Below the pieces are notes generated by a model. The model was given only the letters and a program-made list of their open reading frames with translations. It did not search any database and was not told where the DNA came from. From the IMG/VR virus record IMGVR_UViG_2915331061_000005: a stretch of DNA of 64,000 bases; one strand, written 5' to 3'. Every line of letters starts with the position of its first letter. The first letter of the stretch is position 1. The stretch comes from a virus. Its lineage: Duplodnaviria > Heunggongvirae > Uroviricota > Caudoviricetes. Below are positions 5,041 to 52,506 of this stretch, piece by piece. A program made the translations under genes and the position numbers.

Positions 5041-5054
5041 AACACGACTTCCTT

Positions 5055-5357: not shown

Positions 5358-5370
5358 GTAGTCGTCTCCC

Positions 5371-5796: not shown

Positions 5797-5830
5797 CTTT
5801 TGTCCTTTCTATTGGTGTGAATCTTCGGTC

Positions 5831-5894: not shown

Positions 5895-5895
5895 A

Positions 5896-5927: not shown

Positions 5928-6066
5928 CCATGCGGGCCGCCCTATGTATTCTTTCAGTCCTCAGTAGGTAGGACCCCCGACTGTCGGAATGGCCGGGGCA
6001 GCCGTCTGCGTCCCCACGTTTCCGGCTGCATGGTGGGCGTGATTCGGTGCGCCCAGACCTTTGCGG

Positions 6067-6312: not shown

Positions 6313-6363
6313 GGGCGGCAGTACAGCGTGGTCAGCGTGTCGAACCGGCGGTACGCCCCGCCG

Positions 6364-6711
6364 TCATGCCTTTTCTTGCTGTTGTTCATGTTCCTTCCGC
6401 TTCCTGTTCCTCTCGATCAGATTATCCAGCTCTTCCCAGGCCTTCTGCTCTTTCAGCAGTTCGTCTAAGCGCCAGTACCCGTATGACTTGCCCGCTGCGT
6501 CCGCCTTGCGCACATCGGCGGTCAGCGGATCAGCGGGCGGGTTCTTATACTTCTTGCGTACCCGTTCCGCAAATCGTTCTGCGCAAACGGGGCACCGCCG
6601 GGCGGTGACATTATTTGAAAGGATCACCGCCCCGCAGTCAACGCAGGTCTTGATTATCACCGGTCCATTCCCCCTTGTGGTTCTGGATGTAGCGCCGGAT
6701 ATCCTCCGCAA
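6364..6711 (-). CDS. Zinc-ribbon protein; conserved C-terminal DVRKADAAGKSYGYWRLDE motif (paralog 60039..60224)
   Basis: CVDCG...CPVC. The C-terminal region aligns with the B-copy protein. Confidence 0.45.
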   Translation of the reverse strand: MRRISGATSRTTRGNGPVIIKTCVDCGAVILSNNVTARRCPVCAERFAERVRKKYKNPPADPLTADVRKADAAGKSYGYWRLDELLKEQKAWEELDNLIERNRKRKEHEQQQEKA

Positions 6712-6798
6712 ACTTTTTGCGCTTCCTGCGCTCTATCACTTCAAAGATGGTGTACATCGCCGCACACACCACGACGACCGCCACCGCCGCCGCGCCCA

Positions 6799-7044
6799 TC
6801 ATCTGGCACGCTCCCGCTTCAGCTGCTTTTCCAGCTCTAAGCGTTCGCACTCCCAGCGATACCGCCGGACACGCTCTTCCAGCAGGTTCACCTTCTGTTC
6901 CAGCTTCGTGGTGTAGCTGATGCTGCACCAGCCCCATGTCAGCAGGGCAGCAATGGTGACGATCAGTGCAAACCACGCCACCGGCTCCCGTGCGGCTGCC
7001 TGGGCGGCATCCACGCCGTAGAACCACATAATAAAGTTCCTCAT
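6799..7044 (-). CDS. Membrane plus coiled-coil small protein
   Basis: N-terminal TM helix, C-terminal LEERVRRYRWECERLELEKQLKRERAR. RBS AAGGAGAG. Confidence 0.45.
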   Translation of the reverse strand: MRNFIMWFYGVDAAQAAAREPVAWFALIVTIAALLTWGWCSISYTTKLEQKVNLLEERVRRYRWECERLELEKQLKRERAR

Positions 7045-7200
7045 GCCTGTTCGCTCTCCTTCTTGTCTTCCGGTGCCTGTGCACCAGCCTTTGCCAGCTT
7101 CATGCCCTGAACCACGCCTGCGATATAGGTCGCTGCTTCCGGGTTCTCTGCCAGCAGTTCGGCCATTTCCTTGCTCTGGCTCTTGTCTTTCTCGCTCATG
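7041..7200 (-). CDS. Unlisted small ORF (MSEKDKSQSKEMAELLAENPEAATYIAGVVQGMKLAKAGAQAPEDKKESEQA), stop overlapping the next start (ATGA)
   Basis: RBS AAAGGAGCG eight nt upstream. Translationally coupled to 6799..7044. Confidence 0.3.
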
Positions 7201-7238
7201 CTCTCACGCTCCTTTGTTGTCTGCTCCTTCCCGTCGTG

Positions 7239-7490
7239 CTATAATATGGTGCCATTGGTGATAAGCAGCGCCGCCGGGAAGTCCGGGTCGTAGTTGAACT
7301 CGATCCGGGCTTTTGCTTTGTGGTCAATAAATCTCACGACTGCCCCGATTTCTCCCAACTTCTGAAACGCTTCTTCCTTGCGCCACACGCCGATTCCTAT
7401 GCCGTTGCAATGAATCTCTTCCGGCTTGTAGCCGTAGTGTTTCAGCACTTCGTCCACGTCGAGTTCATCAAATGCTTTTTTGTGGATCAC
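7239..7490 (-). CDS. Conserved hypothetical (DEVLKHYGYKPEE...KAKARIEFNYDPDFPAALLIT); paralogs at 60523..60810 and 61062..61372
   Basis: >70 % identity to the C-terminal half of the B-copy proteins. GTG start after GGGGGTGAAG. Confidence 0.5.
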   Translation of the reverse strand: MIHKKAFDELDVDEVLKHYGYKPEEIHCNGIGIGVWRKEEAFQKLGEIGAVVRFIDHKAKARIEFNYDPDFPAALLITNGTIL

Positions 7491-7574
7491 ACTTCTTCAC
7501 CCCCTTTTCTGTTGCTCTCGTGTTGCCCATCTCCTCCCGCCGTGGTACAATAGCCACAGAAAGGAGGTGTAAAA

Positions 7575-7943
7575 ATGAGCCTGTCGTTAACTAAAAAGGC
7601 TATCCTTGCCGGATACGCTCATTCCATTTCTCTTAAGGGATTTGAAACAAATCGCCTGTTTCTCGTCACCGCCGCTGGCATCATCAGCGGTATTCCTGTG
7701 TTTGATGAAAAAACAGACAATTTGAATGTTACCGTTGCACAGACGCTCAACTCTGCGGCTCTTGAAGCTGTTTCTAAGGCTGATAGCCCCGATGAAGAGC
7801 GTTCCGCTGGAAGCGGCGAGTTCATTCTGTTAAGGGATGCTCGGTTTGAAGCCACAACTCCCGTTGTGAACTTCCCCATTCTGACCGTGTTCTACGATCA
7901 GATCATTGCCGTGAGCCTTGGTACTGACCCCACCAATCGTTAA
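7575..7943 (+). CDS. Hypothetical protein
   Basis: Strong RBS AAAGGAGG 8 nt upstream, preceded by -10-like TACAAT. Confidence 0.45.
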   Translation: MSLSLTKKAILAGYAHSISLKGFETNRLFLVTAAGIISGIPVFDEKTDNLNVTVAQTLNSAALEAVSKADSPDEERSAGSGEFILLRDARFEATTPVVNFPILTVFYDQIIAVSLGTDPTNR

Positions 7944-8033
7944 GCTCTCGACCTTTTGCCGTCCTTGTACCGCTAATACAAGGGCGGCAATTTCTTTTGC
8001 GCTGCCAGTGATTACAATTTTCATCTCCTTCAC
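7830..8033 (-). CDS. Small hypothetical protein
   Basis: 67-aa ORF. Shares a duplicated 30-nt leader with 7239..7490. Overlaps the 3' end of 7575..7943. Confidence 0.3.
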   Translation of the reverse strand: MKEMKIVITGSAKEIAALVLAVQGRQKVESLTIGGVSTKAHGNDLIVEHGQNGEVHNGSCGFKPSIP

Positions 8034-8082
8034 CCCCCTTCTGTTGCTCTCGTGTTCGCTAAGTTAACTTTACGAGTTCATT

Positions 8083-8099
8083 ATAGTTTATCAAACTAT
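8083..8099. promoter_or_regulatory. Candidate operator: 7-bp inverted repeat ATAGTTT-ATC-AAACTAT upstream of the repressor promoter
   Basis: Perfect palindrome ~30 bp upstream of the -35 box. Confidence 0.35.
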
Positions 8100-8129
8100 C
8101 ATTGTCAACCCCTTTTTCTTCTTTTTTCG

Positions 8130-8158
8130 TTGACTTAATTAACGCGCCGTGCTATTAT
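8130..8158 (+). promoter_or_regulatory. Sigma-70-type promoter (TTGACT, 17 nt, TATTAT) for the XRE repressor gene
   Basis: Near-consensus boxes with 17-nt spacer, ~27 nt before ATG 8185 and RBS AAGGAGGTG. Confidence 0.55.
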
Positions 8159-8184
8159 TATAGTAAAGGAGGTGAAACAAAGGT

Positions 8185-8667
8185 ATGAAAGATAGAATCC
8201 GGGAGGTTCGAGAGCATTTTGGACTTAGTATGGAGAAGTTTGGTTCCCGCATTGGCATAGGCAAAGCGTCCATTAGTCTTTTGGAAAGCGGTAAGAACAA
8301 TCCATCCGTTCAGACCATTACTCTTATCTGCCGGGAGTTCGGTGTAAACGAACAGTGGCTCCGCACTGGTGAGGGCGAAATGCTTGAGCAGACCCGGGCA
8401 AGCGTGCTGGACAGGCTGTCCACGGAATACGATCTGAGCAGGGAGCAGCGTTCCGTAATTGAAGCGTTCCTTGATCTGGACCCGCAGGAACGGGACGTGA
8501 TTCTGAAGTATGTGCATAACGTTTTTGACCGTTCCGCAGAATCCGCAGCCCAGAGCATAGCAATACCCGATAAGGAAGCCCGGCGCATTGCCGAGAGCGA
8601 CGAGTTCAAAGCCCTTCGGGAAAAGAACGAGCCGCCGGAGAGCGAATCGTGTACTACCGCCGGTTAG
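8185..8667 (+). CDS. XRE-family HTH transcriptional repressor (CI-like)
   Basis: N-terminal HTH_XRE motif (LSMEKFGSRIGIGKASISLLESGKNNPSVQTITLICREFGVNEQWL). Sits next to the integrase at the prophage edge. Confidence 0.8.
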   Translation: MKDRIREVREHFGLSMEKFGSRIGIGKASISLLESGKNNPSVQTITLICREFGVNEQWLRTGEGEMLEQTRASVLDRLSTEYDLSREQRSVIEAFLDLDPQERDVILKYVHNVFDRSAESAAQSIAIPDKEARRIAESDEFKALREKNEPPESESCTTAG

Positions 8668-8723
8668 TTCTTCAACGTGCCGCTTCTGAGTGGCTGAAGA
8701 ATCACCAGTAAATCCGCGCAAAA

Positions 8724-8762
8724 AGAAAAAGCCCACCGGGGGACAGGCCCGGTAGGCTTTTT
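8724..8762. terminator. Bidirectional intrinsic terminator (A-tract, 13-bp stem, T-tract)
   Basis: AAAAAGCCCACCGGGggacagGCCCGGTAGGCTTTTT. Confidence 0.45.
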
Positions 8763-8797
8763 CGTGTATGCAAATTATTTTATGGAGGTATTATCTT

Positions 8798-9265
8798 ATG
8801 AGAAAAATTTCTGTCTTTGCTGTTTCCTGTGCCGCCGTTCTCCTTCTTTCCGCTTGTGGCAGTTCTTCCAGTTCCGTGCCTGCATCTAGCGGCGCTTCGT
8901 CTGCTGTGTCCAGTTCTTCGGAACCGGTTTCTTCCGTTTCCGTTTCATCTTCTGCATCGGTCGATGATGCGTTTTCCGATTTTGAAGCCGCGCTTTCCGA
9001 GAACGGTATTGCTTATACGGAAAAGGTTCGTATGGCTGCTGAACTTATCGGCGGCGTAGACGGTTACAAATACAAAACACCCGATTATAACATTGAGGTG
9101 TATACTTTCGATCCTTCGTCCGACGCTTATCTGACTACCGAAAAGGACGGCACCGTTATCATGGAAGGCTTTGGCTCATTCCCTGCTTATGCTCACAACG
9201 GCATGGTTCTTGTGCAGACCGACAATCTTCCCCAGGAAGTGATTGACCTGTTTGATGCCATGTAA
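8798..9265 (+). CDS. Lipoprotein (signal peptide with lipobox LLSAC, Ser-rich linker)
   Basis: MRKISVFAVSCAAVLLLSACGSSSSS... RBS GGAGG. Confidence 0.6.
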   Translation: MRKISVFAVSCAAVLLLSACGSSSSSVPASSGASSAVSSSSEPVSSVSVSSSASVDDAFSDFEAALSENGIAYTEKVRMAAELIGGVDGYKYKTPDYNIEVYTFDPSSDAYLTTEKDGTVIMEGFGSFPAYAHNGMVLVQTDNLPQEVIDLFDAM

Positions 9266-9301
9266 AGCTCCACATTGTCTTTCTGCAAAGGTGGTGTCCC
9301 T

Positions 9302-10912
9302 ATGAAGAAACAACCAACCGGCGGCAAGCGTCTTGTTGCCTACTACCGCTACAGCGGCGGCAGTCATCAAACGGAGCAGTCCATTGAGGGGCAGCGCCGG
9401 GACTGCGAAACTTACGCCCGTATCCATGGCATGGTCATCCTGCATGAATACATTGACCGGCATATCTCCGGCAAGACGGACGACCGCCCGGAGTTTCAGC
9501 AGATGATCGCCGATGCTGGGAAAGGGATGTTCGACTATGTGATTTGCTGGAAAACAGACCGCATTGCCCGCTCCCGGTATGACAGCATCGTCTATAAAAA
9601 GAAGCTCCGTGACAACGGCGTGGAGCTACTCTATGCCGCAGAAGCCAACGTTGAAGGCTCCGGCGGTATCATCGTGGAGGGCTTGATGGAAGCCCTTGCC
9701 GAATACTACTCTGCCGAACTGGCCGAGAAGGTGCGGCGCGGTATGCGGGAAAGTGCCTTGAAGGGCAAGGCTATCGGCAGTTCCCGTCCCCTTGGTCTTA
9801 CCGTGGACAAGGATAAGAAGTATATCATCGACCCCGCCGGGGCTGCCGCCGTGCGGTATATCTTTGAGCAGTACGCCGCCGGGGCTGCGTCCTCTGCTAT
9901 CGTTGCACACCTGAATGAACAGGGCTTGTGCACCAGCCGGGGCAACCCGTTCAATAAGTCCAGCGTGGTGCGTATCATCCAAAACGAGGTGTATCGGGGC
10001 GTGTATGTCAGCCCCAAGTTTGACGTGCGCATTGAGGGCGCAGTACCGGCCATTATTGACGACGATCTATGGGAGAGGGCGCAGAAGATGTTTATTCGTA
10101 ACCGTCAGAGCCGTTCCCCGCGCAATGACCGCGCGGACTACATCCTGTCCGGCAAGCTGTTTTGTGGCGAGTGCGGCACTGCCATGAAGGGCGTGTCCGG
10201 CCACAGCAGCAACGGCGAGGTGTACTTCTACTACAGCTGTCCGTGCAAGGACTGCCACCGCCGGAACATCCCGAAGGACGAGCTGGAAGGTCTGGTAATC
10301 CGCACCGTCTGTAACGACGTGTTGCAGCCGGACGTGATGGATCGCATTGCAGACAGTGTGATCGAAGCCCAGACCGCCGAACTGAACCAGCCAAACCCGG
10401 AGAAGGAAGCATTGCAGCACGAGCTTGCCGACGTGCAGCGCAAGGCAAAGAATCTGCTGTCTGCATTGGAGAACGGCACCGCCGGGGCTATGCTGACCAA
10501 CCGCCTTGCCGAACTGGAACAGCAGGCCAACACGCTGTCCTATCAGCTGTCGTCGCTGGAATCTGAGCCGAAGTTCCCGGTCTTCTCCAAGGAAGAAGTT
10601 CTGTACCTGCTGGAACAGTTCCTCATTGCCCCCAGCGAGAAAACCAAGGCATACCGCCGCCGCCTAATCGACACCTTTGTCAGCAAGATCGAGGTGAGCA
10701 ACACGGAACTGACCATCTATTTCAACATTGCCGAGGAAGATTGTGGAAAAATGAAAAAAGCTCCCCAGTCGAACCAGCCCGAAGGCTGTTCGACTGAGAA
10801 GCAAATGGTCCACCTTGCACATCAACAAGCGAACTATTCCCTTTATGCGGCTTCCGGCTACTTTTCACTGGTTGAACACCAATTTTCGGCCCGTTTGTGG
10901 CGCACCGCATAA
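9302..10912 (+). CDS. Large serine recombinase (phage integrase)
   Basis: Resolvase catalytic domain (VAYYRYSGG...EGQRRDC), recombinase domain, zinc ribbon (CGECG...CPCKDC) and C-terminal coiled coil. ~65 % identical to 62456..64000. Confidence 0.85.
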   Translation: MKKQPTGGKRLVAYYRYSGGSHQTEQSIEGQRRDCETYARIHGMVILHEYIDRHISGKTDDRPEFQQMIADAGKGMFDYVICWKTDRIARSRYDSIVYKKKLRDNGVELLYAAEANVEGSGGIIVEGLMEALAEYYSAELAEKVRRGMRESALKGKAIGSSRPLGLTVDKDKKYIIDPAGAAAVRYIFEQYAAGAASSAIVAHLNEQGLCTSRGNPFNKSSVVRIIQNEVYRGVYVSPKFDVRIEGAVPAIIDDDLWERAQKMFIRNRQSRSPRNDRADYILSGKLFCGECGTAMKGVSGHSSNGEVYFYYSCPCKDCHRRNIPKDELEGLVIRTVCNDVLQPDVMDRIADSVIEAQTAELNQPNPEKEALQHELADVQRKAKNLLSALENGTAGAMLTNRLAELEQQANTLSYQLSSLESEPKFPVFSKEEVLYLLEQFLIAPSEKTKAYRRRLIDTFVSKIEVSNTELTIYFNIAEEDCGKMKKAPQSNQPEGCSTEKQMVHLAHQQANYSLYAASGYFSLVEHQFSARLWRTA

Positions 10913-11719: not shown

Positions 11720-12133
11720 TTAACCCACCCAACGGCTCTTTACCGCACGGGTGTCGATGTGTACCCAGCCAGCAGGACGACCAGTTTTTACCGGGTAACG
11801 TCCGATGCCGCCGGTGTTTTTCAGCAGCGTTTCGGCGTAGGTCGCGAGCGTTTCCACGTCCACGCCCTGAATCCGAATATCTGCCGCCATACCGTAGCAA
11901 TGCTGACTGTACGTTGCGCCCTTGACCGCCTTGTTATGGGCGGCAGTGCGATATGCGCTGGTGATCGTAACAGCCTTTCCAAAGTGATTCCGGATGTTCT
12001 GCAACAGTTTCACCAACACATCATCAATAAAGATGGGGTCAGTCCCATCCTTGCAGCGAAACTCTTTCACGGCAAAATTTGCGGACAGTTTCTTGTTACC
12101 ATCCTTTGCCAGTGAATAGGCTTTAATCGCCAT
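11720..12133 (-). CDS. Endolysin, peptidase M15 (VanY/D-Ala-D-Ala carboxypeptidase-like)
   Basis: TSAYRTAAHNKAV...SQHCYGMAADI zinc-binding motifs of Peptidase_M15. Confidence 0.75.
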   Translation of the reverse strand: MAIKAYSLAKDGNKKLSANFAVKEFRCKDGTDPIFIDDVLVKLLQNIRNHFGKAVTITSAYRTAAHNKAVKGATYSQHCYGMAADIRIQGVDVETLATYAETLLKNTGGIGRYPVKTGRPAGWVHIDTRAVKSRWVG

Positions 12134-12285
12134 TGTCGTTTTCTCCTTTCTGGCTCAATGCCATTTTGCAGCCGCTCGACCCGCACTCAGCCACCAGCAC
12201 GGCAAATTCGCCGCGCTCTGCGGTCGTGTCCGCACCACTGGTTTCCAGCCGGGTCAGCAGGCTTTCGCACAGATCGGGCCAGCTT

Positions 12286-12453
12286 TTATGCTGCATAGTC
12301 TTCGCCCGTGATGTCCTTGTAGTCGTCTGCGGTGATCTCGCCCTTGTTTATGCGCTCGGCCAGAACTTTCTTGACACCGGCGCGGCGGGATGCGGGCATC
12401 TCTGCCCAAGTCTTAGTGCCTGCAATCAGGCGGTTTGCCCAGATAATGTTCAT
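12286..12453 (-). CDS. XkdX-like small phage protein
   Basis: 55-aa ORF MNIIWANRLIAGTKTWAEMPASRRAGVKKVLAERINKGEITADDYKDITGEDYAA. The ITxxxYxxITGE motif resembles PBSX XkdX. RBS GGAGGT. Confidence 0.4.
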   Translation of the reverse strand: MNIIWANRLIAGTKTWAEMPASRRAGVKKVLAERINKGEITADDYKDITGEDYAA

Positions 12454-12465
12454 GGTGATACCTCC

Positions 12466-12669
12466 TTATTCCTTGTTCAGCGCTGCGTCCAGCTCACACA
12501 GCGCGGTTTCGATGTCGGTCAAGCGCTTCTCGTTGGCCGCGTCCTGTTCGCACAGGGCATCTTCCATTTCAGCCACACGGTCGGGCAACTGTTCGTGCTC
12601 CTGCTGCTTCTTGGCTGCGGCTTCCTTCTCCTGCCGGGTGGGCAGATTGTCCTTTTTCCACTGAATCAT
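12466..12669 (-). CDS. Small coiled-coil hypothetical
   Basis: 67-aa ORF with heptad-like repeats. Confidence 0.35.
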   Translation of the reverse strand: MIQWKKDNLPTRQEKEAAAKKQQEHEQLPDRVAEMEDALCEQDAANEKRLTDIETALCELDAALNKE

Positions 12670-12683
12670 GGTGACTGTCCTCC

Positions 12684-13943
12684 TTACTGGAATGCGCCGG
12701 AAACGGCCTCGATATAGCCGCCGGTGCCGGATTCGCCGCGCTCCACGCTGACGCGGAAGTTAAACGCCGCGCCGTTGGTGGCGGTCTTATTCTCAAAGAC
12801 GATGTTCACGCCTTTTTTTGCCTCGGTCGTGGCATCCTGCCAGACCGGGGAGCTGTCGAGTGCGTTGTTGGTCACTTCGGCTTTGAACTTCGCATCATCG
12901 GGGATGGAGCCGGTCACCTGAAGCACGGCAACGGTAATGTCGCCCTCAACGGCCAACGGTTCAGCCAGCGTCACGCTTGCGGCGTGGACGGCCTTGGTAA
13001 AGGTCGCGGACGTGCTGACGGTTTCCTTGCCGTCGCTCACCTCAACGGTGATGGTGTGGTTGCCGTTCAGGATTTTCTGGAATCCGGCAGCGCTGGCCGT
13101 CTGCTCAAAGGTCAGGGCCGTGCCGCTGGCAACGCCGGTGCGGATCTTGGTGGTCTTGCCGTCCAGCTTTTCGGTGACGGTCAAGGTGTCGCCGTCGGCA
13201 TCCCTGACGGTGTACTTCCACGCAAAGGCCGCGTTCTTCCGCCCCAGAGCTGCGTCGTCCGTGCTGACGGTAGGTGCAGTGTTGACACTGACCGTGCCAT
13301 CGTCAGAGACCACGAGTGTAGAGGGAAGAATGAAAGCGGGGCGAACACCATAGGAGTCGTTGTACCAGTCGTAGCTGCTGGAGCCATCGGTGTTGACGCT
13401 CCAGACGTTGTAGTTATTGCCGGTGTACGGAGAGCGCAGCCACCAAATGGCAGCGGAGCTGCCATTGTATGCAATACGCTTGCTGTTACCGCTGGAGCTG
13501 TTGCCAAAGTATGCCAGCCTCACACCGTCCTTCGGGAAATAGCCGTTGTCGCTGGTCGTCCAACCAACCTCATAACCAGACAGCAGGAACACTTTGGTGC
13601 TCAGGCCGTTGGAGCCGGTGGCAAGGCTGCCGCCGGAACCAGTGCCGTTCTGGTACGGGATTTTCACCTGCTTAATAGCCGCCCGGATGTTGCTGTCGAT
13701 GAGGTTGTAGAACGTTCCGTTCAGGTATGTGTGGATGCTGGAATCCTTGTAGGAGTTATTGCTGCCGAACGTGGACGTGGTGTAGATGTCCTTCATCAGC
13801 AGCCACGTTCCATTGCAACTCGAATCATAGGTGCTGGTGTTCGGGTTGCCCTGCTGCACAACAATAAAATCTTTGGACGCGCCGTTGACTTTGATTTTGA
13901 CAATGCTGCCAACGGCTTTCGTGCCCAGTTTTACGTTTGCCAT
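12684..13943 (-). CDS. Tail fibre / receptor-binding protein, DGR target 1 (VR1 encodes residues ~163-203, including YGVRPAF)
   Basis: Start MANVKLGTK with GGAGGT RBS. Contains VR1 with A-to-N mismatches against the TR. C-terminal Ig-like region. Confidence 0.7.
   Translation of the reverse strand: MANVKLGTKAVGSIVKIKVNGASKDFIVVQQGNPNTSTYDSSCNGTWLLMKDIYTTSTFGSNNSYKDSSIHTYLNGTFYNLIDSNIRAAIKQVKIPYQNGTGSGGSLATGSNGLSTKVFLLSGYEVGWTTSDNGYFPKDGVRLAYFGNSSSGNSKRIAYNGSSAAIWWLRSPYTGNNYNVWSVNTDGSSSYDWYNDSYGVRPAFILPSTLVVSDDGTVSVNTAPTVSTDDAALGRKNAAFAWKYTVRDADGDTLTVTEKLDGKTTKIRTGVASGTALTFEQTASAAGFQKILNGNHTITVEVSDGKETVSTSATFTKAVHAASVTLAEPLAVEGDITVAVLQVTGSIPDDAKFKAEVTNNALDSSPVWQDATTEAKKGVNIVFENKTATNGAAFNFRVSVERGESGTGGYIEAVSGAFQ
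13335..13455 (-). repeat. DGR variable repeat VR1
   Basis: 121 nt, ungapped alignment to TR 15364..15484 with 10 mismatches, all at TR adenines (minus strand). Confidence 0.8.
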
Positions 13944-13963
13944 TGTTACCTCCTTGTTTTCGT

Positions 13964-15193
13964 TCAGGCCCACGGCATGATCTCCGCGGGCCGCGTGTTC
14001 TGCGATACAGAGAGGGACAGGGCTTTGTGCTGCTTCTTGTAGATGCAGCGGCATTGCCTCGCCCGCCGTCTGTCACGCGCGAGTTTGTTCGAGTTGATTT
14101 TTCGATGGATAGGGATTTTACAGTCAAGCAATTTTTCGAGCCGGTCAGCGTACTTGCGGCGTAAAGAGTAAGTATCACCATGGGCGGCATGGGCATCCCA
14201 CGCATCAAAGCTCCGCAGGATTTCCTGCTTGGTCACTTCGCCTGCGGGGTATGCCGTCTCCCAATATCTGATCTTGTTCTTCATCCGCTTGGAGCTATCC
14301 CGGCGCAGCTTTTGGATGACCGCGCCGGTGTCGGTCAGGTAGCTATGGAATCCAAGAAAATCAATACCGTTCCGCAGCGGGAAAATGGCGGTTTTCTGGT
14401 TCAGCTCAAGGCCGTAACTGTCCATGAGCTCCCGAACATCCCGGAGAATGCACTGCAATTTCTTCTTGTCCGAACAGATGATATAGAAATCATCCATGTA
14501 TCGGCCATAGTATTTGATGCGGTACTTCTCTTTGATGATGTGGTCGAACTCATCCAAAAACATCAGCGCAAAGAGCTGGCTCGTCTGGTAGCCCAGCGGC
14601 AAGCCGTCCTCCATCACGTCGATGTAGATGCAAAGCAGCTCATAGACACGCGGGTCAACGCCGCGCTTGTCCAGCACGGCCTTGAGTTTGCGTTTTAACT
14701 TCCGGTGGTCGATGCTGGCAAAGAAATGCCGCACATCGCCTTTCAGCACCCAGCCGTCCGCGCCGTGGCCCTCACGGCGGTAATAGTCCACCATGTGAGT
14801 TTTCAGGCGCATCAGGCCGTCGTCTGTGCCTTTGCCGGTCTGGCTTGCGTGGCTGTCCCGGATAAAGCTCTTTGTCAGAGCATCATACAGGATGTTATCG
14901 ACCAGCGCGTGTAGCACCACCTTGTCCACAAATGCGGGGGCGTGTACCATGCGGCGCTTCGGCTCATAGACGGCAAAGACCTCAAACTTACTTGGCACAT
15001 AGCATATCTGCTGCCGGATGTCGCCGCCCGGCTGGCGTACATCACGCACAGCCAGCTTGCGGGACAGCTTTTCCGTGCAGGCCAGCGCCTGCGCCTCGTA
15101 CTCGATTGTTTTGCTTTTACTGCGCTTTCCCTTCCGGGCTTCAAGGTAGGCTTTGTAAAGCACCTCAAAGCTGCACAGTTCTTCGTATGTCAA
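13964..15193 (-). CDS. DGR reverse transcriptase
   Basis: LPLGYQTSQLFAL (DGR-specific [I/L]GxxxSQ motif 4) and YMDDF catalytic motif. 409 aa, adjacent to TR. Confidence 0.8.
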   Translation of the reverse strand: MTYEELCSFEVLYKAYLEARKGKRSKSKTIEYEAQALACTEKLSRKLAVRDVRQPGGDIRQQICYVPSKFEVFAVYEPKRRMVHAPAFVDKVVLHALVDNILYDALTKSFIRDSHASQTGKGTDDGLMRLKTHMVDYYRREGHGADGWVLKGDVRHFFASIDHRKLKRKLKAVLDKRGVDPRVYELLCIYIDVMEDGLPLGYQTSQLFALMFLDEFDHIIKEKYRIKYYGRYMDDFYIICSDKKKLQCILRDVRELMDSYGLELNQKTAIFPLRNGIDFLGFHSYLTDTGAVIQKLRRDSSKRMKNKIRYWETAYPAGEVTKQEILRSFDAWDAHAAHGDTYSLRRKYADRLEKLLDCKIPIHRKINSNKLARDRRRARQCRCIYKKQHKALSLSVSQNTRPAEIMPWA

Positions 15194-15363
15194 AATGACC
15201 CTCCGCTGGTTCGCGTTGCGGTAGTGGGCTGCATCCGGCAGGGATGGCCCACCTCAGCGGGATGTATTTATCACTTGCCTGCATCGGCAAGCGACAGGAT
15301 GCGGTTTCCTTTGATGGGCGCACTGCTTTCAGCTTATGCCTACTCGTCACACGGTTCCATCAG

Positions 15364-15484
15364 AGCGGGGCGAACACCATAGGAGTTGTTGTACCAGTTG
15401 TTGTTGTTGGAGCCATCGGTGTTGACGTTCCAGACGTTGTTGTTATTGTTGGTGTTCGGAGAGCGCAGCCACCAAATGGCAGCG
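15364..15484 (-). repeat. DGR template repeat TR (AAC-codon-rich)
   Basis: Minus strand is rich in AAC (plus strand gttgttgttgtt). Matches VR1 and VR2 except at A positions. Lies 170 nt upstream of the RT. Confidence 0.8.
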
Positions 15485-15534
15485 TCAGACAAACAAACCG
15501 CACCCTTTATGCAAAGCGGTTGCCCGCTGTGCGT

Positions 15535-16110
15535 TTACGGTTCCGGGTAAAGGACGGCTTTCAGGGCGGCAGCCTGTTCGGTCAGCCGTTTCCGTTCCGC
15601 TTCTGCCCGGAGTTTTTCGGCACGTCCGCGTTCCGACGTGAGCCACTTCATCGCCGGGTATTTTACGTCCGTGACCTTCTTTGTCCAGATACCGGCTTTC
15701 TTCGCACTGATGATACCTTCCTCCGTGCAGATGGCCAGGTATTCCAGCAGTAGAGAGCAACCGTCCACGACCGCGCCGATCTTCTCAACGCGCCTGTCGT
15801 AGTCGGTCTGGAAATTCACGTTGTTCGCCGCGTGTGCATCCAGCAGGATTTGCCGGGCGGTCAGCCGGATGCCCTCGCCGTACAGCCGGAAAGTGCTTTT
15901 GGAAAAGCCCTCCCTGTCCCGCGTGTCGAGTGCATGGACGGCAGTGCCACACACCTTCTGGATGTCGCGCACATCTTCGAGCGCTGCGACTTTCTGGATG
16001 ATCTTCCGGGCATCGCTCCGGCTGATGTCATCGGTGACGATGCGGGTTGCCCTCTGAGTGTAGCGCAACAGCTCCCGCGCATTCGCGCCGACCTTGAATG
16101 TTTCAGCCAT
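15535..16110 (-). CDS. Putative DGR accessory protein (Avd-like by position; helical, basic)
   Basis: Sits immediately upstream of the TR in the avd position. 191 aa, longer than the canonical ~130-aa Avd. Assigned by position only. Confidence 0.3.
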   Translation of the reverse strand: MAETFKVGANARELLRYTQRATRIVTDDISRSDARKIIQKVAALEDVRDIQKVCGTAVHALDTRDREGFSKSTFRLYGEGIRLTARQILLDAHAANNVNFQTDYDRRVEKIGAVVDGCSLLLEYLAICTEEGIISAKKAGIWTKKVTDVKYPAMKWLTSERGRAEKLRAEAERKRLTEQAAALKAVLYPEP

Positions 16111-16496
16111 CAGAACTCCACCCTCGCCTGTTCTGCGTTCCACACGCCAGTGACGGTCAGGCCGTCAAGGCTGCTGAACGTGGCGGAAAAAGGATTTTTC
16201 GTCACGTTTGTGCCGAACTTCAGCTCAATGGCCTTGATGCTGGCGTTCATAGCTGCCACACTGGCACGGATGTCGCTGTGGGCGTTCTCCGCACCGTTGT
16301 GAGCGTCCACGGCTGCGCTGATGCGCTGGTCGGTCTCGGCCTTTTTGTAGCCGTCCACTTCCCACCGCTGGCTCTCGGTCAGGTGGCCGTCTGCATCCAG
16401 CGTGGCAATGCCGCCCGGTACGCCGATCTGGTCAGTGCGGACAACATCTTCATCCGGCGCCTTGCCGGGGCCTGCGTTAAAAGAACCGTATGCCAT
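16110..16496 (-). CDS. Tail fibre protein (GIATLDADGHL motif)
   Basis: Conserved tail-fibre N-terminal motif. ATGA-type coupling with the downstream gene. Confidence 0.45.
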   Translation of the reverse strand: MAYGSFNAGPGKAPDEDVVRTDQIGVPGGIATLDADGHLTESQRWEVDGYKKAETDQRISAAVDAHNGAENAHSDIRASVAAMNASIKAIELKFGTNVTKNPFSATFSSLDGLTVTGVWNAEQARVEF

Positions 16497-16946
16497 TTAG
16501 GTTCCCCCTTCCTGTGCATCCGTGTATTTCACGGTGCTTGTAATGTGATACTGTGCAGAAATTTTCTCGGTCGGAGCTTTGGCGGCCCTCAGCCGCAGCT
16601 TTCCTTCGAGGCTTTCGGTCGCAATAAAGCCCACCGCACCCGCCACATCGTAAAATTCCGGCAGTACCGTAACATCCACAATGTCGGTAGCCAACAGGCC
16701 CGCAATGGGGATGTCACAATAAAAATAGCCGGGGGAGGAATCATCCTCGCCCCAGCCATCGACCGGAATCGTAAAAGACACCGCAGCCGTGACATCCTGC
16801 TTTTCGTGCAGGATGTCATCGGTTTCCTCGAATCCGTTTGCCGTTGCTTCGGAAAGGTCTCCGAGTGCGGTGTTGCACTGCTTGATGTGGCTGCAAAGCG
16901 CGGCAAGCCCTGTGCCCAAAAGCGTTTTGATCTTCGCTTTTGCCAT
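16497..16946 (-). CDS. Tail-associated hypothetical protein
   Basis: Position within the fibre/baseplate cluster. Confidence 0.35.
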   Translation of the reverse strand: MAKAKIKTLLGTGLAALCSHIKQCNTALGDLSEATANGFEETDDILHEKQDVTAAVSFTIPVDGWGEDDSSPGYFYCDIPIAGLLATDIVDVTVLPEFYDVAGAVGFIATESLEGKLRLRAAKAPTEKISAQYHITSTVKYTDAQEGGT

Positions 16947-16966
16947 AGAGCTTACCTCCTCATGTC

Positions 16967-17836
16967 TTAGTCAGCCAGCAGAGCGGCGATCTCCTCTGCG
17001 GAGAAGTCCTCCACATCCTCGTCGTGCAGAACATTCTCCGGCTCGGTGTACACGACGACTTCCTTGCCGTCAATGTTCACATTGCCGTTGGTGGAGCTGG
17101 CTGCGGTCTTGGTGGCACCCTCAGAGACACCGGCCAGCTTTTCGCCCTCGGCATCGGTCATCAGGCGCTTGCCAGCCTCGGCGGCCACAAAGTCGGCAGG
17201 CTTCTTGCCGCTGTCGGTCAGGTTGCCCTCGCCGTCCAGCGCAGCGAGGTTGCCGGTGGTAGCACCAGTGACCTTATCGGCCTTGCCGGAAATGTCCACT
17301 TCCTCAGGGGTGGGAACATACAGACCGTCGTCCTTCAGGGTCAGAGCGTTGCCCGCAGCAGCGGAAACATTGACCTTGACATCCACCTCATAGCCAGCGA
17401 TGGTAACGGTGGTGGAAGCATCCTTGCCGACGGCCTTAGCCTTGTAGGTATCCACCAGCGCAGCCATGCTCAGGAAAGAGTAGGTGCAGGAGTCAGGATT
17501 CTCGCCCTTGACGGCCAGCACCATGACGGGCTTGCCGTCCAGCTTGGGGTCGGTAGCGCCGGGATAGGTGGCGGCATCGAACTTGAACTTTGCCACGAAG
17601 GTGGTCTTGGTCTGGTCGAGGAACAGCTCAGAGGGGAAGTCAACGGAGAAAGCAGCAGTGCCGCTCTTGTCGGTAGAGGTGTAGAAGTTCACGGTGTTGC
17701 CGTCAACGCCAAGAGACTTGATAGCAGCGTTGGCTGCGGTCTGCACAGGGGTAAAGGCGTCCTTCTTGACGAAAGTCTTCTTGATCTCAGCGGTCAGGTT
17801 GCGGATGGTGGTCTTGGTAGAAATCTGCTTAGACAT
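16967..17836 (-). CDS. Tail fibre / baseplate-attached protein (XkdV-like)
   Basis: GNLAALDGEGNLTDSG fibre motif. Position. Confidence 0.4.
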   Translation of the reverse strand: MSKQISTKTTIRNLTAEIKKTFVKKDAFTPVQTAANAAIKSLGVDGNTVNFYTSTDKSGTAAFSVDFPSELFLDQTKTTFVAKFKFDAATYPGATDPKLDGKPVMVLAVKGENPDSCTYSFLSMAALVDTYKAKAVGKDASTTVTIAGYEVDVKVNVSAAAGNALTLKDDGLYVPTPEEVDISGKADKVTGATTGNLAALDGEGNLTDSGKKPADFVAAEAGKRLMTDAEGEKLAGVSEGATKTAASSTNGNVNIDGKEVVVYTEPENVLHDEDVEDFSAEEIAALLAD

Positions 17837-17855: not shown

Positions 17856-18980
17856 TTATTTCAGCATATCAACGATTTCCTGCTGCGTTTCTTCCTCGTC
17901 GAGCAGGTCTTCACTCGTCATAACGGTTTCTTTGCGGACGGTCAGCGCGTTTGCGCTGTCGAAGTCAAGACCTTCGCCGATGCGGACGGCAATAGCGCCG
18001 CTTGCGTCGCGCTTCAAGCCCTGACCGATGCTTACGCTACCGGTTTCACCCGAACCACCTCCTTTCCCGAACAGGGTTACGGTCGCCTGAATATCTGCTT
18101 CCGGGATGCGCTGAGCGAAAAATCTGATGAAACCATCATGCGTTTCGCACCCGTTCAGGACGCCCGCTTTGGTCGTAGTATAGAAGCTGCCGGGAGATAC
18201 AACGCCAACGGGTACAAGCTCGCTGGTGCTGTCCGACAGTTCTGCATCATAAATGCACTGGTAGTAATCCATACCGCCAGCGTTTTCGTAATCATCCTCG
18301 CTGCGGGCGGGCTTCCACCCGTCAGCCGCAAGGGTGAGTTCGTAGGAGCCATAGTAGCCGCCTGTTCCGCCGTCCACCTGTTCCTTGATAAGAGCCTTTA
18401 CCTGTTCTTCGTTCAGGATTTCCCCGGATTCAGACAGGTTCTTCACGGCTGCGCTGACCGCTGCCGTGATAGTCGCCGCATGGGCGTCGGCGGCGGCGTT
18501 GTGCTTCTCAATTTCGGCCTTGACCAGCTTCATCAAAGCCTGCATCTGCGGGCTGAGGGCAATTTCGATTTTTGCTTTGTTCGAGATTGCAATAAGGGCA
18601 GCAATCTCAATTTCAAAATCAGCGTTCACGCTGGATGCAGGGACTTCGATTCCACGTTCATCCTGCATGATGAACAGCAGCACTTCGGCATCATCATTCA
18701 GGCGGCCATATACGCCGATCTGGTGCATGATGTAAGTGCTTTCTGCTCCGGTAATCTGGATGCTGACTTTCCGGGCCGTTTCCTCTCCGTCCTTTACGGT
18801 GTCAATCGCAAGGATGGTCAGTTCGTGCGTTTCGCCGCTGACGGTCGTTTCTGCCGACAAGTCGGTTTCAACGATGCCGGTGCCGCTCACGGCGCGGGTG
18901 ATGGTGAGCGCGCCGCCGGAGAGGGATTCCGACAGGAGCGCGGCACCGGCAGTTGTATAACTGGATTTTTCCCAACTCAT
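17856..18980 (-). CDS. Tail fibre / baseplate protein
   Basis: 374 aa. Position after the baseplate I-like gene. Confidence 0.4.
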   Translation of the reverse strand: MSWEKSSYTTAGAALLSESLSGGALTITRAVSGTGIVETDLSAETTVSGETHELTILAIDTVKDGEETARKVSIQITGAESTYIMHQIGVYGRLNDDAEVLLFIMQDERGIEVPASSVNADFEIEIAALIAISNKAKIEIALSPQMQALMKLVKAEIEKHNAAADAHAATITAAVSAAVKNLSESGEILNEEQVKALIKEQVDGGTGGYYGSYELTLAADGWKPARSEDDYENAGGMDYYQCIYDAELSDSTSELVPVGVVSPGSFYTTTKAGVLNGCETHDGFIRFFAQRIPEADIQATVTLFGKGGGSGETGSVSIGQGLKRDASGAIAVRIGEGLDFDSANALTVRKETVMTSEDLLDEEETQQEIVDMLK

Positions 18981-21237: not shown

Positions 21238-21644
21238 GTGTACTCCTTTAGCGTCAAGGTCAGCTTTCCGCTTGTCAGTCCCCAGAACCGATGTACCGCG
21301 CCCCATTCATCCGCTACTTTTTCAAGCATAAACGGATTTTGAGAAACCGGCCTGTTGTTGATGATGAAGTAGTCTACTGCTCCGGCTTCGCACAAATCCA
21401 TTAGGGCGTCAAAGACCTTTCGCGGATTTACTCCCAGCCTTGAACTAAGCGTAATGTTGAACTGATACTCTCGCAGGCCGGGACTTACATATTCGCTTTT
21501 ATCTTTTCCGCCGATCACGCTGTGCGTCGCCCAGTTGCTCGACGTACTTCCACTGATGTTGTCCGGCGTAAGAACTCGCCAACTTGATACCGTAAACACC
21601 AGTCCAGCAAAGCTACCGATGCTGCCCCATGCCATAAAGAACAC
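21234..21644 (-). CDS. Tail/baseplate hypothetical (XkdR-like position)
   Basis: 136 aa, between spike and wedge genes. Confidence 0.35.
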   Translation of the reverse strand: MFFMAWGSIGSFAGLVFTVSSWRVLTPDNISGSTSSNWATHSVIGGKDKSEYVSPGLREYQFNITLSSRLGVNPRKVFDALMDLCEAGAVDYFIINNRPVSQNPFMLEKVADEWGAVHRFWGLTSGKLTLTLKEYT

Positions 21645-21648
21645 CCCC

Positions 21649-22266
21649 TCACTTTACCGGGACGCCGGTATTCCCCGAAACAGTATACGGGCCAGCTTTT
21701 GCCGACCCGTCATGTTCGTGCTTGTGATTCACAAGGCTTACGCCATTGATTTTGCAGTCGCCAGAGCCGCCCGAAATATTCACCGTTGCTCCTGTGATTT
21801 TCACCGTCGTTCCGGTAATTTCAATCGTTCCGCTCTGGCAAACCTTGACGGTCGAAGCCCCGACCTTGAAGGTCACGTCCCCACCAACAGTGAAGTCCAG
21901 ATTTTTACCGATGGTCTCTTTTGCATTCCCGTCGATTTTTTCTTCATAGTCTCCGCTATCTCCATCGTATTGTTCAAAGGCTTTGCCCTTCTTATCGTTG
22001 TAGTCATACCGGTAACGTTGTTTCTTTCCACCGACCGGCTTGTTATCCTCATTCCAGAACGTTCCGATGCACGTTCCCATTTCCTGACTATCGGAATTGT
22101 GGAGAACGCAAACCATAGCACCGACAACCGGCATCCGGTACAGCGCATTTGAAACCACACAGATTTCATCGGTCACAGAACCGTCCCGATCTTCATATGC
22201 AACTTCAATTGTGCCATCCTCGTAATTCACTTTGGACACTGTGCCAATGCGAATGACGCTGCTCAT
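21649..22266 (-). CDS. Baseplate spike protein (gpV-like OB-fold plus beta-helix)
   Basis: N-terminal VIRIGTVSKVNYEDGTIEV...CVV and C-terminal ITGTTVKITGATVNISG repeats. Confidence 0.5.
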   Translation of the reverse strand: MSSVIRIGTVSKVNYEDGTIEVAYEDRDGSVTDEICVVSNALYRMPVVGAMVCVLHNSDSQEMGTCIGTFWNEDNKPVGGKKQRYRYDYNDKKGKAFEQYDGDSGDYEEKIDGNAKETIGKNLDFTVGGDVTFKVGASTVKVCQSGTIEITGTTVKITGATVNISGGSGDCKINGVSLVNHKHEHDGSAKAGPYTVSGNTGVPVK

Positions 22267-22270
22267 CGTG

Positions 22271-23269
22271 TCACCCTCCCACTCTGCTTGCTGAGACCTT
22301 CGTCACAAAACCGCCGGATTTATTCATGGTGTGCCCTACACTGTCCATGTAATATTTTCCGTCGATTTTCCCATATCCTTCCACGTCAATACACTGCGTC
22401 GCGCAATATGTCAGGTTTCCCATAGTCGTAAAGGAAATGGTTGTAGCCGAATGGTTTTTGTTGTCGATAGCCGCCTGCAGCTGCCGTTTTGCGTCCGCTT
22501 CACTTGATGCATACTGGTTTAGCTTCAACATCCGGTCTGCCGTTCCGATTGTCACCTTGATATTCACTTTTTTCTTTTGGTTGGAATAAGTGAACTCGCC
22601 TCCGGTGTATGTTCCTGCCAGCGTTGTGTTCCAGCTCAACGAGCCGGGCACAATGTCAATCGGTTTTACCGTTGCTACCGAATCCTTTTTCTTGTACTTT
22701 TCACGGTCAAAAATCCAGATTTTGTTCCGGTATGTTTTGAGGATCAGCCCGTATGTGCTGCAAATTTTCTGCAAGAAAGAGCTGTCATTATCGTCCTGTT
22801 CTTTCAGAGCGACGCTGACATCCTCTGCATCCATCTTGCATTCCAAGCCGTACCGCCCAGCAATGGTTTCTGCAATGCGTTTGATGCTCGTGTTCTTCCA
22901 AACCTGCTCTCTGTTTTTTTCATGAAAGCTCGTCCCGTTTGGCCGGGCGACCGCTCCAATCGTCAAAACATCCGGGCAGGCCGAAAAGCTCAGATCATCA
23001 ACTACCAGCGTTCCACAATCCAAAACGGTTCTATCCCCCTGCACGATCCAGTTTGTCGTGCAGAGGGTCGGGTGCAGCACAGCTTCCTTGTCTGGCATCC
23101 ACGAATCGATCCACTTGTGATCCATCGCGTTTACCTTAATAGAAAGGCTGTCACTCGAATCCGAACCGCTATCGGTGTATGTGAAGTTTTCCACATCTTT
23201 GCGGATGTCGCTTGAAATGTCCTTTCCGTCATATTCAAGCGTCAGGAACGCTTGACGTGGCGTAATCAT
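22271..23269 (-). CDS. Tail protein gpD/XkdQ-like
   Basis: 332 aa, directly downstream of tape measure and LysM genes as in P2/PBSX. Confidence 0.45.
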   Translation of the reverse strand: MITPRQAFLTLEYDGKDISSDIRKDVENFTYTDSGSDSSDSLSIKVNAMDHKWIDSWMPDKEAVLHPTLCTTNWIVQGDRTVLDCGTLVVDDLSFSACPDVLTIGAVARPNGTSFHEKNREQVWKNTSIKRIAETIAGRYGLECKMDAEDVSVALKEQDDNDSSFLQKICSTYGLILKTYRNKIWIFDREKYKKKDSVATVKPIDIVPGSLSWNTTLAGTYTGGEFTYSNQKKKVNIKVTIGTADRMLKLNQYASSEADAKRQLQAAIDNKNHSATTISFTTMGNLTYCATQCIDVEGYGKIDGKYYMDSVGHTMNKSGGFVTKVSASRVGG

Positions 23270-51858: not shown

Positions 51859-52506
51859 TTATTCCTCCGCCCGGCTCTTGATTTCAGCCAGCAGATCATC
51901 CAATGGAACATCGGCGAGGCAAAACCCGGCTTCTCCTTCATCCTCGGTAGAGACCCAGAGTGTAGAGGGAAAGTACAAAGCGGGGCGAACACCATAGGAG
52001 TAGTAGTACCAGTAGCGGTGGCTGGAGCCATCGGTGTCGACGTACCAGACGTAGTAGTCACTGTCGGTGAGCGGAGAGCGATTCGGCGTACCGTAAGGCG
52101 TCGCCAACCACCACGGCGTATCTACCTTCGGGATCAGCCGCCAATACTTTCCATACTGACGCAGGGTCAACAGGCCGATTCTGTATTCAACGGTTCCGTA
52201 TTCGGTCTGTCCGGTTGTGTCCTGCAGGTCGATCTTGAACGGAATAAAAGTATCCAGCGGCGTACCCTTCTCGGTAAACTCTGCCAGACAGTTACCCAGA
52301 TACTTCATAACATCGCTCCGGCGCAGATCGTTGGGACACTCCGGGTCGTCGCCGTCACGGAACGGCATTTTCGTCCAAATGTCCTTTGCCAGCACCAGAC
52401 AACCGTGTTCGTCTGCATCCAGCTTCACAAGCTCTTTGCCCAGCGCCTTGAAGATGCCGCCATTTTTCACATTGCCCAAAGTTGTGCTTTTCAAAATCTT
52501 GCTCAT
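51859..52506 (-). CDS. DGR target 2: small protein with C-terminal variable repeat VR2 (…YYYSYGVRPALYFPSTL)
   Basis: Contains VR2, a 102-nt match to the TR with 16 mismatches, all at TR adenines. 215 aa. Confidence 0.65.
   Translation of the reverse strand: MSKILKSTTLGNVKNGGIFKALGKELVKLDADEHGCLVLAKDIWTKMPFRDGDDPECPNDLRRSDVMKYLGNCLAEFTEKGTPLDTFIPFKIDLQDTTGQTEYGTVEYRIGLLTLRQYGKYWRLIPKVDTPWWLATPYGTPNRSPLTDSDYYVWYVDTDGSSHRYWYYYSYGVRPALYFPSTLWVSTEDEGEAGFCLADVPLDDLLAEIKSRAEE
51979..52080 (-). repeat. DGR variable repeat VR2 (remote, ~36.6 kb from TR)
   Basis: Ungapped alignment to TR 15364..15465. Every difference is at a TR A (plus-strand T). Confidence 0.75.

Follow-up and report, generated by a model that had tools for sequence, protein, structure and literature searches.

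The closest described relatives of the locus analyzed here are the diversity-generating retroelements (DGRs) of the phage genus Toutatisvirus. The element has been published for FP_Toutatis, Lelie, and 173 Toutatisvirus genomes (Cornuault 2018; Baykov 2023; Egorov & Atkinson 2024; the 2024 Lelie paper). The published Toutatis-type DGR has an Avd, two variable repeats (VRs), a tentaclin target downstream of the reverse transcriptase (RT), and a small core-genome target containing DUF6273. The FP_Toutatis group is also listed as tentaclin-bearing (Baykov et al. 2023, PMC10743442). The DGR, both of its targets, and its unusual layout are thus already known from at least four papers on the same phage genus. 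Two other systems invite comparison. In the gut phages nd4 and nd12 (PMC10743442), the large target has a VR-bearing N-terminal DUF6273 followed by Ig-like domains, while a second, small target is a lone DUF6273 domain with a C-terminal VR. In the prototype DGR, that of Bordetella phage BPP-1, the order is mtd-avd-TR-brt (TR, template repeat). The RT-10 RNA motif has been placed in the BPP-1 spacer, and other RT motifs have been proposed to serve DGRs (Weinberg et al. 2017).

We analyzed 64,000 nucleotides of viral DNA (IMG/VR record IMGVR_UViG_2915331061_000005; hereafter the window) containing a cassette that is, with high confidence, an intact DGR of the Toutatisvirus type in a Faecalibacterium prophage. 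Positions 10806-64000 of the window are 97-98% identical to FP_Toutatis (NC_047915 / MG711466), and the cassette is 94.5% identical to that of Toutatis and 97.5% identical to that of Lelie (PP479942). Both phages share the order of Avd, TR, RT, and large DUF6273 plus Ig target, and both have the second VR within a small DUF6273 protein of the core genome; VR sequences and minor indels alone differ. The window prophage has a tandem neighbour, a second Toutatis-like prophage that is diverged.

Results

On the minus strand, the cassette is arranged as accessory gene, TR, RT, and large target (Table 1). This bears out the original prediction of an Avd-TR-RT-target order in which the target is downstream of the RT.

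Table 1. Positions in the window of the DGR components, RNA elements, and targets
Feature	Position	Strand	Description
Accessory gene, probable extended remote Avd homologue	15535..16110	-	191 aa; directly upstream of TR
Putative Stop-duplex 5′ strand, AGGGUGCGGUUU	15495..15506	-	in avd-TR intergenic gap; brackets TR with 15296..15307
TR	15364..15484	-	121 nt; 34 adenines; 14 AAY codons
TR 3′ flank UGAUGG, candidate template strand of template:primer duplex	15357..15362	-	
TR-RT spacer (Sp)	15194..15356	-	
Stem-loop H1	15323..15345	-	spacer
Candidate primer strand CCAUCA plus invariant CAAAGGA, CCAUCAAAGGA	15307..15317	-	spacer; CCAUCA is 15312..15317
Putative Stop-duplex 3′ strand	15296..15307	-	spacer
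Hairpin H2	15270..15295	-	spacer
Conserved GAUAAAUACAU	15262..15272	-	spacer
Long-range helix	15255..15261 with 15199..15208	-	encloses hairpin H3
Hairpin H3	15223..15253	-	spacer
DGR reverse transcriptase	13964..15193	-	409 aa; TTG start; GGAGGG ribosome-binding site
Large target ("tentaclin" / "Hoc-like")	12684..13943	-	419 aa; N-terminal DUF6273 plus two beta-sandwich regions
VR1	13335..13455	-	codons 163-203 of large target
Small target	51859..52506	-	215 aa; DUF6273 C-terminal part; early-gene region
VR2	51979..52080	-	~codons 143-176 of small target

The RT had been assigned to the DGR type from two motifs, and the translation contains both of them, LGYQTSQ and YMDD. RTs of the DGR clade carry [I/L]GxxxSQ where other RTs have QGxxxSP, together with a YxDD catalytic site. 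Profile searches matched the protein to RVT_1 (3e-19) and phrog_1423 (7.5e-123). Its top match in PDB, and the closest solved RT, was Bordetella bRT (8ub7_A, E=2.8e-25). Since Cas6-RT-Cas1, group II intron, and retron RTs in PDB scored 1.3e-8 or weaker, the bRT match is ~17 orders of magnitude better than that to any other RT class. The catalytic aspartates and SQ motif of bRT (D138, Q187, and D215/D216, numbered as in the Handa preprint) are conserved in the alignment. No DGR-specific NCBIfam model matched; hits in this library were to group II intron RT (89.5 bits, with a cut-off of 300 bits), Drt3a, and retron models, all sub-threshold. A search of positions 12000-17000 for intron or retron RNA families found none. 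The RT protein is 100% identical to the RTs of two other contigs (L004 and L005).

Re-alignment reproduced the predicted TR and VR1 coordinates exactly. The 121 nt align without gaps, and all 10 mismatches are at TR adenines, for which the chance probability is 1.0e-6 given 34 adenines in 121 positions. VR2, to which the original prediction had alluded, was located in the small target gene; here 16 mismatches are spread across a 102-nt core, and 16/16 are at TR adenines (P = 6e-10). Tabulating the substitutions by TR base thus gave adenine only for both VRs, as proposed for adenine-specific transfer from TR to VR. When the entire window was scanned on both strands with tolerance at adenines, no TR or VR copies beyond these three were recovered.

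The TR itself is non-coding, as it is covered by just one spurious 50-aa ORF without the N-terminal part of DUF6273, and it ends 170 nt upstream of the RT start codon. Half of its codons (20/40) are variable and none can mutate to stop, giving a theoretical protein diversity of ~1e20. TR, VR1, and VR2 have a GC-rich 3′ end, GTTCGCCCCGCT, in common, right after which the sequences part: the 3′ flanks of the two VRs are alike, and the TR lacks that flank. In DGRs such as that of BPP-1, an IMH marks the VR 3′ end and an IMH* the TR 3′ end; here, beyond the common 3′ end, nothing was definable as such a pair. A search for a BPP-1-like hairpin or cruciform 3′ of VR1 or VR2 gave nothing significant (z 0.37 and 0.08, respectively), unlike in BPP-1.

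Comparison with relatives from different samples, rather than with reads of a single sample, revealed that VR heterogeneity is confined to the adenine sites. The TR is identical in 53 of 57 public relatives, and the TR in the window is the consensus. In contrast, all 56 VR1 copies are distinct and all 34 columns corresponding to TR adenines vary, with an entropy of 1.31 bits at these columns versus 0.034 elsewhere. For VR2, all 41 copies are distinct (1.305 bits at adenine columns versus 0.049 elsewhere).

The avd-TR-RT transcript contains covarying RNA elements that mirror those of the BPP-1 DGR RNA: a primer duplex between TR and Sp, a Stop duplex that brackets the TR, and a stem-loop immediately 3′ of it. 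The two strands that bracket the TR pair perfectly (11/11) in 17 of 21 related loci, at a consistent distance and with compensatory changes, and by analogy this duplex probably corresponds to the BPP-1 "cPRT Stop" duplex. The TR flank UGAUGG is complementary to CCAUCA in the spacer, with covariants across loci of UGGUGG:CCACCA, GGUGG:CCACC, and GGCUG:CAGCC. For the spacer structure in 16 loci, 91% of cells pair, whereas shuffles give 74% (0/500) and slid partners 29-43%. Compensatory changes occur in 14 of 21 spacer pairs, so the hairpins too are backed by covariation. A local hairpin proposed by RNAalifold (GGA...UCC, A4 columns 77-89) was rejected; it never covaries, and its second half (15296..15307) pairs in the covarying long-range duplex.

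The full-length Rfam RT-2 model (RF03077) matches the spacer with E=0.004 on 501 nt, but the score of 22 bits falls short of the gathering score of 40. A search of the 16 related loci with Rfam at gathering thresholds gave no hits, to RT-2 or otherwise. Thus, the spacer is a relative of RT-2 and not a member. Like RT-2, it has AGUAG-hairpin-GAAA, AAAGGA, and nested 3′ helices. For its RT-2 outer helix, the only support comes from visual inspection and the Rfam alignment; an ungapped 9-nt search was too crude.

Our searches support the proposal that the gene upstream of the TR encodes an Avd, in the form of a probable remote and extended homologue. Avd is a four-helix-bundle pentamer (PF22296 / PF05635). 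The accessory protein matches phrog_3206, "Avd protein of DGR" (E=1.3e-35). It has no direct sequence match in Pfam, NCBIfam, or PDB, and neither phmmer nor a 24-sequence profile found anything relevant in PDB. A profile search from the protein reaches proteins of 120-136 aa, of which 5 of 10 tested match PF22296 bAvd and/or PF05635 with E from 5.5e-5 to 2.7e-7. These matches do not reach the gathering scores, making the bridge to Avd sub-threshold. The AF2 model of the accessory protein was unusable (pLDDT 52). Although Toutatis was described as having no Avd homologue (Cornuault 2018), later annotation and the present analysis favor a remote, extended Avd.

The large target contains DUF6273 (Pfam PF19789, 1.4e-39) at amino acids 44-208, followed by beta-sandwich or Ig-like domains, and its gene closes the tail module, right before XkdX and the lysis genes. 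It had been called a tail-fibre protein. The tail-module location holds, but the fibre label is putative; VR-bearing N-terminal DUF6273 with downstream Ig-like domain(s) is the published tentaclin/Hoc-like architecture. In tentaclins as described by Baykov et al. 2023, DUF6273 has a C-type-lectin fold and presents the VR as a surface beta-hairpin. VR1 is in the N-terminal half of the protein, as predicted, because the Ig-like domains come after DUF6273. This position is not odd, however, since it is the C-terminal end of DUF6273, as in other DGR targets. The small target, which matches phrog_9958 (2.5e-83) and scores 23.4 bits against PF19789 (cut-off 23.5), is orthologous to Toutatis gp24 and is encoded between a prohibitin-like gene and replication genes. 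NCBIfam returned nothing for Avd or either target.

Discussion

The RT, TR, two VRs with adenine-only substitutions, lineage-wide VR hypervariation, and covarying RNA are all documented for this element, as the predicted DGR identity would have it. Could the RT instead be of the group II intron, retron, or defence type, with the repeats being paralogous DUF6273 segments shaped by ordinary diversifying selection or gene conversion? The MG711466 record does call the RT "retron-type", and the sub-threshold NCBIfam matches are to group II intron, Drt3a, and retron models. Those models came up because none specific to DGRs was matched in that library, whereas the margin by which bRT surpasses other RT classes in PDB and the lack of intron or retron RNA families around the cassette argue against such an RT. 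Moreover, the TR is outside any gene, and the mismatches fall on one base of one copy, a pattern that selection or conversion does not yield. The adenine-only mismatches therefore refute the paralogue reading, and we consider an RT of another class to be exceedingly improbable.

It is harder to dismiss the idea that the cassette is silent or conditionally inactive in this prophage, the differences between VRs and TR then being a legacy of past activity in the lineage. In Lelie, which is nearly identical over the cassette, reads from culture and post-induction have no peaks of variation at VR1 or VR2 (PMC11792537). In addition, some Toutatisvirus genomes that lack the DGR retain both targets (Egorov & Atkinson 2024), and the targets therefore work without continual diversification. 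Against this, we see no decay: the RT is full length and unchanged in other contigs, the TR matches the consensus, and the RNA duplexes and accessory ORF are all intact. Furthermore, every VR1 and VR2 copy is distinct among near-identical phages, which implies frequent recent activity. We therefore regard a silent cassette as unlikely and favor an intact DGR.

A mechanism for this DGR can be drawn by analogy with BPP-1. A transcript would extend from ~15506, just upstream of the TR, through the spacer to ~15194. Pairing of UGAUGG in the TR 3′ flank with CCAUCA would position an adenosine, the probable priming nucleotide, at the invariant CAAAGGA or adjacent to it, where it would act as a cis-primer. 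The RT, presumably aided by the Avd-like protein, would copy the TR from ~C15363 toward its 5′ end, misincorporating opposite adenines, and cDNA synthesis would halt at the putative Stop duplex. The mutagenised cDNA, perhaps from a single pool, would then replace both VRs, namely VR1 of the large target (DUF6273 plus Ig) and VR2 of the small one (DUF6273). The outcome would be up to 20 variable codons, including the 14 AAY codons, on the ligand-binding face, with no stop codons possible. The targets presumably bind host or mucosal ligands.

The resemblance to BPP-1 includes adenine-specific transfer from TR to VR, an RT homologous to bRT, a probable avd directly upstream of the TR, and the RNA elements described above. 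The systems differ in several respects. The target is downstream of the RT here and upstream of avd in BPP-1; there are two targets here, one of them ~36.5 kb away in the prophage; and the target domains are DUF6273 then Ig, as opposed to trimeric Mtd. The accessory protein has 191 aa and only sub-threshold similarity to Avd, the 5′ strand of the putative Stop duplex is intergenic rather than inside avd, and the spacer is RT-2-like rather than RT-10. Both target architectures resemble those of nd4 and nd12, but the large target is shorter (419 aa versus 569-579 aa) and has fewer Ig domains, the phages are of another genus, and the small target is in the early-gene region.

The gene for the small target sits with early rather than structural genes, and its product, which has no obvious tie to the virion, may not be a virion protein that binds receptors. 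We think it unlikely that it is instead an early-expressed binder diversified by the DGR, for example one directed at host factors, defence proteins, or components of a superinfecting phage. If true, phage DGR function would extend past tropism and adhesion.

As a discovery the locus carries little weight, since the element is already published for Toutatisvirus. It is, however, a clean natural example, with hundreds of near-identical Toutatisvirus genomes in which the TR is constant while the VRs, in two different proteins, are unique. Because the primer duplex, Stop duplex, and stem-loops can be read from covariation, it is a convenient non-Bordetella model for the generality of BPP-1 priming. 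The system could also reveal what a gut phage gains from diversifying an early-region protein and a tail-module protein together.

Adenine-specific divergence of two target genes

The diversity-generating retroelement (DGR) of the original prediction proved real and correctly read. A repeat search of the window matched 13330-13455 to 15359-15484 at 90% identity, and the template repeat (TR) and first variable repeat (VR1) lie exactly where predicted, aligning without gaps over 121 nt with all 10 mismatches at TR adenines (P = 1.0e-6 for 10 random mismatches all on A, given 34 A in 121 nt). The proposed second variable repeat, VR2, was also borne out; when substitutions were tabulated by TR base, 16/16 mismatches in its 102-nt core fell on adenines (P = 6e-10). 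An adenine-tolerant scan of both strands revealed no further copies in the window.

The TR codes for the peptide AAIWWLRSPNTNNNNNVWNVNTDGSNNNNWYNNSYGVRPA. Of its codons, 20/40 can vary, 14 are AAY and a stop codon is reachable from 0, allowing a theoretical protein diversity of ~1e20. A 50-aa ORF at 15340-15492(-) (MSDAAIWWLRSPNTNNNNN...) runs through the TR, and RefSeq annotates its equivalent in Faecalibacterium phage FP_Toutatis as gp80, a "DUF6273 domain-containing protein". This annotation is almost certainly spurious, as the TR imitates the last part of its target domain.

Features of the DGR (nucleotide positions in the window)
Feature	Position	Strand	Description
Large target	12684..13943		419 aa; strong AAGGAGG site; DUF6273 at aa 44-208 (1.4e-39)
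VR1	13335..13455	-	codons 163-203 of large target; C-terminal end of DUF6273 domain
Reverse transcriptase (RT)	13964..15193	-	LGYQTSQ and YMDD motifs in ORF
Primer duplex	15357..15362 : 15312..15317		TR 3' flank UGAUGG : CCAUCA; CCAUCA immediately before invariant CAAAGGA
TR	15364..15484	-	121 nt, 34 A
Stop duplex	15495..15506 : 15296..15307		12 nt between avd stop codon and TR : spacer
Accessory ORF	15535..16110		191 aa; phrog_3206 "Avd protein of DGR" 1.3e-35
Small target	51859..52506		215 aa; phrog_9958 2.5e-83
VR2	51979..52080	-	third repeat copy, inside small target

Variation across relatives

With the RT protein as query, we obtained 238 IMG/VR stretches (80 retained) as well as GTDB loci; a small-target search retrieved 52 loci and yielded 41 VR2 copies. 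Among loci of the window's TR lineage, the TR was identical in 53/57 and all 56 VR1 copies (56/56) were distinct. All 34 TR-A columns of VR1 vary (mean entropy 1.31 bits); the mean over the 87 non-A columns is 0.034 bits, and a recurring minor allele is present in only 4 of these. The recovered VR2 copies were likewise all distinct (41/41), with an entropy of 1.305 bits at A columns versus 0.049 elsewhere (35 sequences of the window's TR lineage, window included). These figures are evidence, at the level of the lineage, that adenine mutagenesis of both targets recurs; they are no proof that the window's own prophage is active. The authors describing phage Lelie (PMC11792537) could not gather such evidence, as near-complete cognate genomes were too scarce.

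In a sister lineage (loci L059, L062-L068, L073 and others; RT ~88% identical), the TR has diverged, sharing 75/87 non-A positions. These loci carry their own VR1 and VR2 variants matching their TR, and compensatory changes have altered both strands of their primer duplex (GGCUG:CAGCC). TR, VRs and RNA elements thus evolve together as one unit.

The RT and accessory protein

The DGR motifs reported for the RT are present in its ORF, and profile searches returned RVT_1 (3e-19) and phrog_1423 (7.5e-123). Its best solved relative was 8ub7_A (328 aa; E=2.8e-25), with Cas6-RT-Cas1, group II intron and retron RTs next at 1e-8 or weaker. Since residues numbered D138, Q187 and D215/D216 in 8ub7_A are those that Handa et al. 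(bioRxiv 10.1101/2023.10.23.563531) named in bRT, the RT of Bordetella phage BPP-1, 8ub7 is bRT; all are conserved in the window RT.

Sequence searches of Pfam, NCBIfam and the PDB gave no match for the accessory ORF, and its AF2 model was unusable (pLDDT 52). A profile search covering 1.84 billion representatives reached 120-136-aa proteins aligned to residues ~65-170. Of 10 tested, five match PF22296 (bAvd-like) and/or PF05635, at E values of 5.5e-5 to 2.7e-7, all below gathering scores. That this ORF is a remote, extended Avd is thus supported but not proven.

A covarying DGR RNA

The sole Rfam match, full-length to RT-2 (RF03077), covers exactly the TR-RT spacer (15180..15356(-)), at a sub-threshold 22 bits (gathering score 40). 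Weinberg et al. 2017 (PMC5737381) assigned the BPP-1 spacer to RT-10 and proposed DGR roles for other RT motifs. An alignment of 16 spacers, from loci whose RTs are as little as ~44% identical, revealed the invariant blocks AGUAG, GAAAGCAG, AUCAAAGGA, AUCCYGUC and GAUAAAYACAU, with covarying hairpins between them. These hairpins pair in 91% of cells, versus 74% after shuffling (0/500) and 29-43% when the partners are slid, and 14/21 spacer pairs show compensatory changes.

The primer duplex covaries across loci (UGGUGG:CCACCA, GGUGG:CCACC, GGCUG:CAGCC). The Stop duplex pairs 11/11 at the same relative position in 17/21 loci, with many compensatory changes. Such RNA elements were predicted in 207 other DGRs (Handa et al.). 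We infer which adenosine acts as primer and where the cDNA ends lie.

At 15199-15208(-), the 3' strand (CAGCGGAGGG) of a long-range spacer helix contains the ribosome-binding site of the RT gene (GGAGGG, 7 nt upstream of the TTG start), so a folded DGR RNA could block translation of the RT. In more distant loci, additional nucleotides separate this helix from the RT start codon.

The target proteins

Besides DUF6273, the large target weakly matches Big_9; the small target matches the C-terminal part of DUF6273, at the Pfam threshold. An AF2 model of the large target (pLDDT 85), built on 36 aligned sequences (35-96% identity), shows an alpha/beta domain at the N-terminus and two beta-sandwich regions; the VR is on strands 167-206, which include a hairpin at 179-193. 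In BFVD, the matching structures are of phage proteins with DUF6273, some of which carry the name tail endopeptidase or tail-collar fibre protein. The gene follows a tail fibre gene (17856..18980) and precedes XkdX and lysis genes. This position makes the predicted "tail fibre" label plausible, and that identity stays putative.

In 29 more remote loci of the RT search (RT identities ~30-64%), the RT is likewise followed directly by a DUF6273-first protein. Thus, RT-then-target order is typical of this RT clade.

Relation to known phages

The cassette shares 97.5% identity with Faecalibacterium phage Lelie, which the VR2 region matches at 99%, and 94.5% with FP_Toutatis. Window 10806-64000 is collinear with Toutatis 53724-1 (97-98% identity), broken at 42190-42398, where ~200 nt replace ~720 nt of Toutatis (21613-22331). 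Short direct repeats are dispersed among small minus-strand genes at 41706-45763: a 55-nt unit present three times (41706, 42398 and 44050; up to 95% identity) and a 44-nt unit with AAAGGAG...ATG at 42472, 45139 and 45720. Both may represent regulatory or translation-initiation regions that recur among paralogous small genes.

Comparing 1-10912 with 53149-63501 shows that the window holds a tandem pair of Toutatis-like prophages. The early region next to the integrase recurs at 1-10341 with only 72-82% identity, and this second prophage closes with a large serine recombinase of its own (9275..10912, phrog_95), followed directly by holin and lysis genes. Two prophages integrated head to tail at a single attachment site would give this order, which is also that of the Lelie genome record, assembled from virion DNA.

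The element is already known from four papers. In these prophages, Cornuault et al. 2018 (PMC5883640) reported RTs with TR/VR pairs, assigning the Toutatis target no function and finding no Avd homologue. The 2024 Microbiology Spectrum paper (PMC11792537) reported a Lelie DGR with two VRs in large and small DUF6273 targets and saw no read-level variation at them. Baykov et al. 2023 (PMC10743442) gave the name "tentaclin" to the architecture with DUF6273/C-lec at the N-terminus plus Ig, and included the FP_Toutatis group in their list. Analysing 173 Toutatisvirus genomes, Egorov and Atkinson 2024 (bioRxiv 10.1101/2024.10.15.618418) reported Avd and RT, a C-lec-like DUF6273 fold, VR1 in a "Hoc-like" gene downstream of the RT and, 17,480 nt away from the TR, VR2 in a gene of the core genome; the 36.5-kb TR-VR2 gap here is the same arrangement in an integrated, linearised genome. 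The downstream target, correctly noted in the original prediction, is no oddity: like the VR in the N-terminal half of its protein, also true here, and the second VR, it is a published trait of Toutatisvirus and tentaclin DGRs. New here, as incremental additions, are a cross-genome test of A-site variation for both VRs of the lineage, a sub-threshold link by homology between the accessory protein and Avd, and a DGR RNA map backed by covariation.
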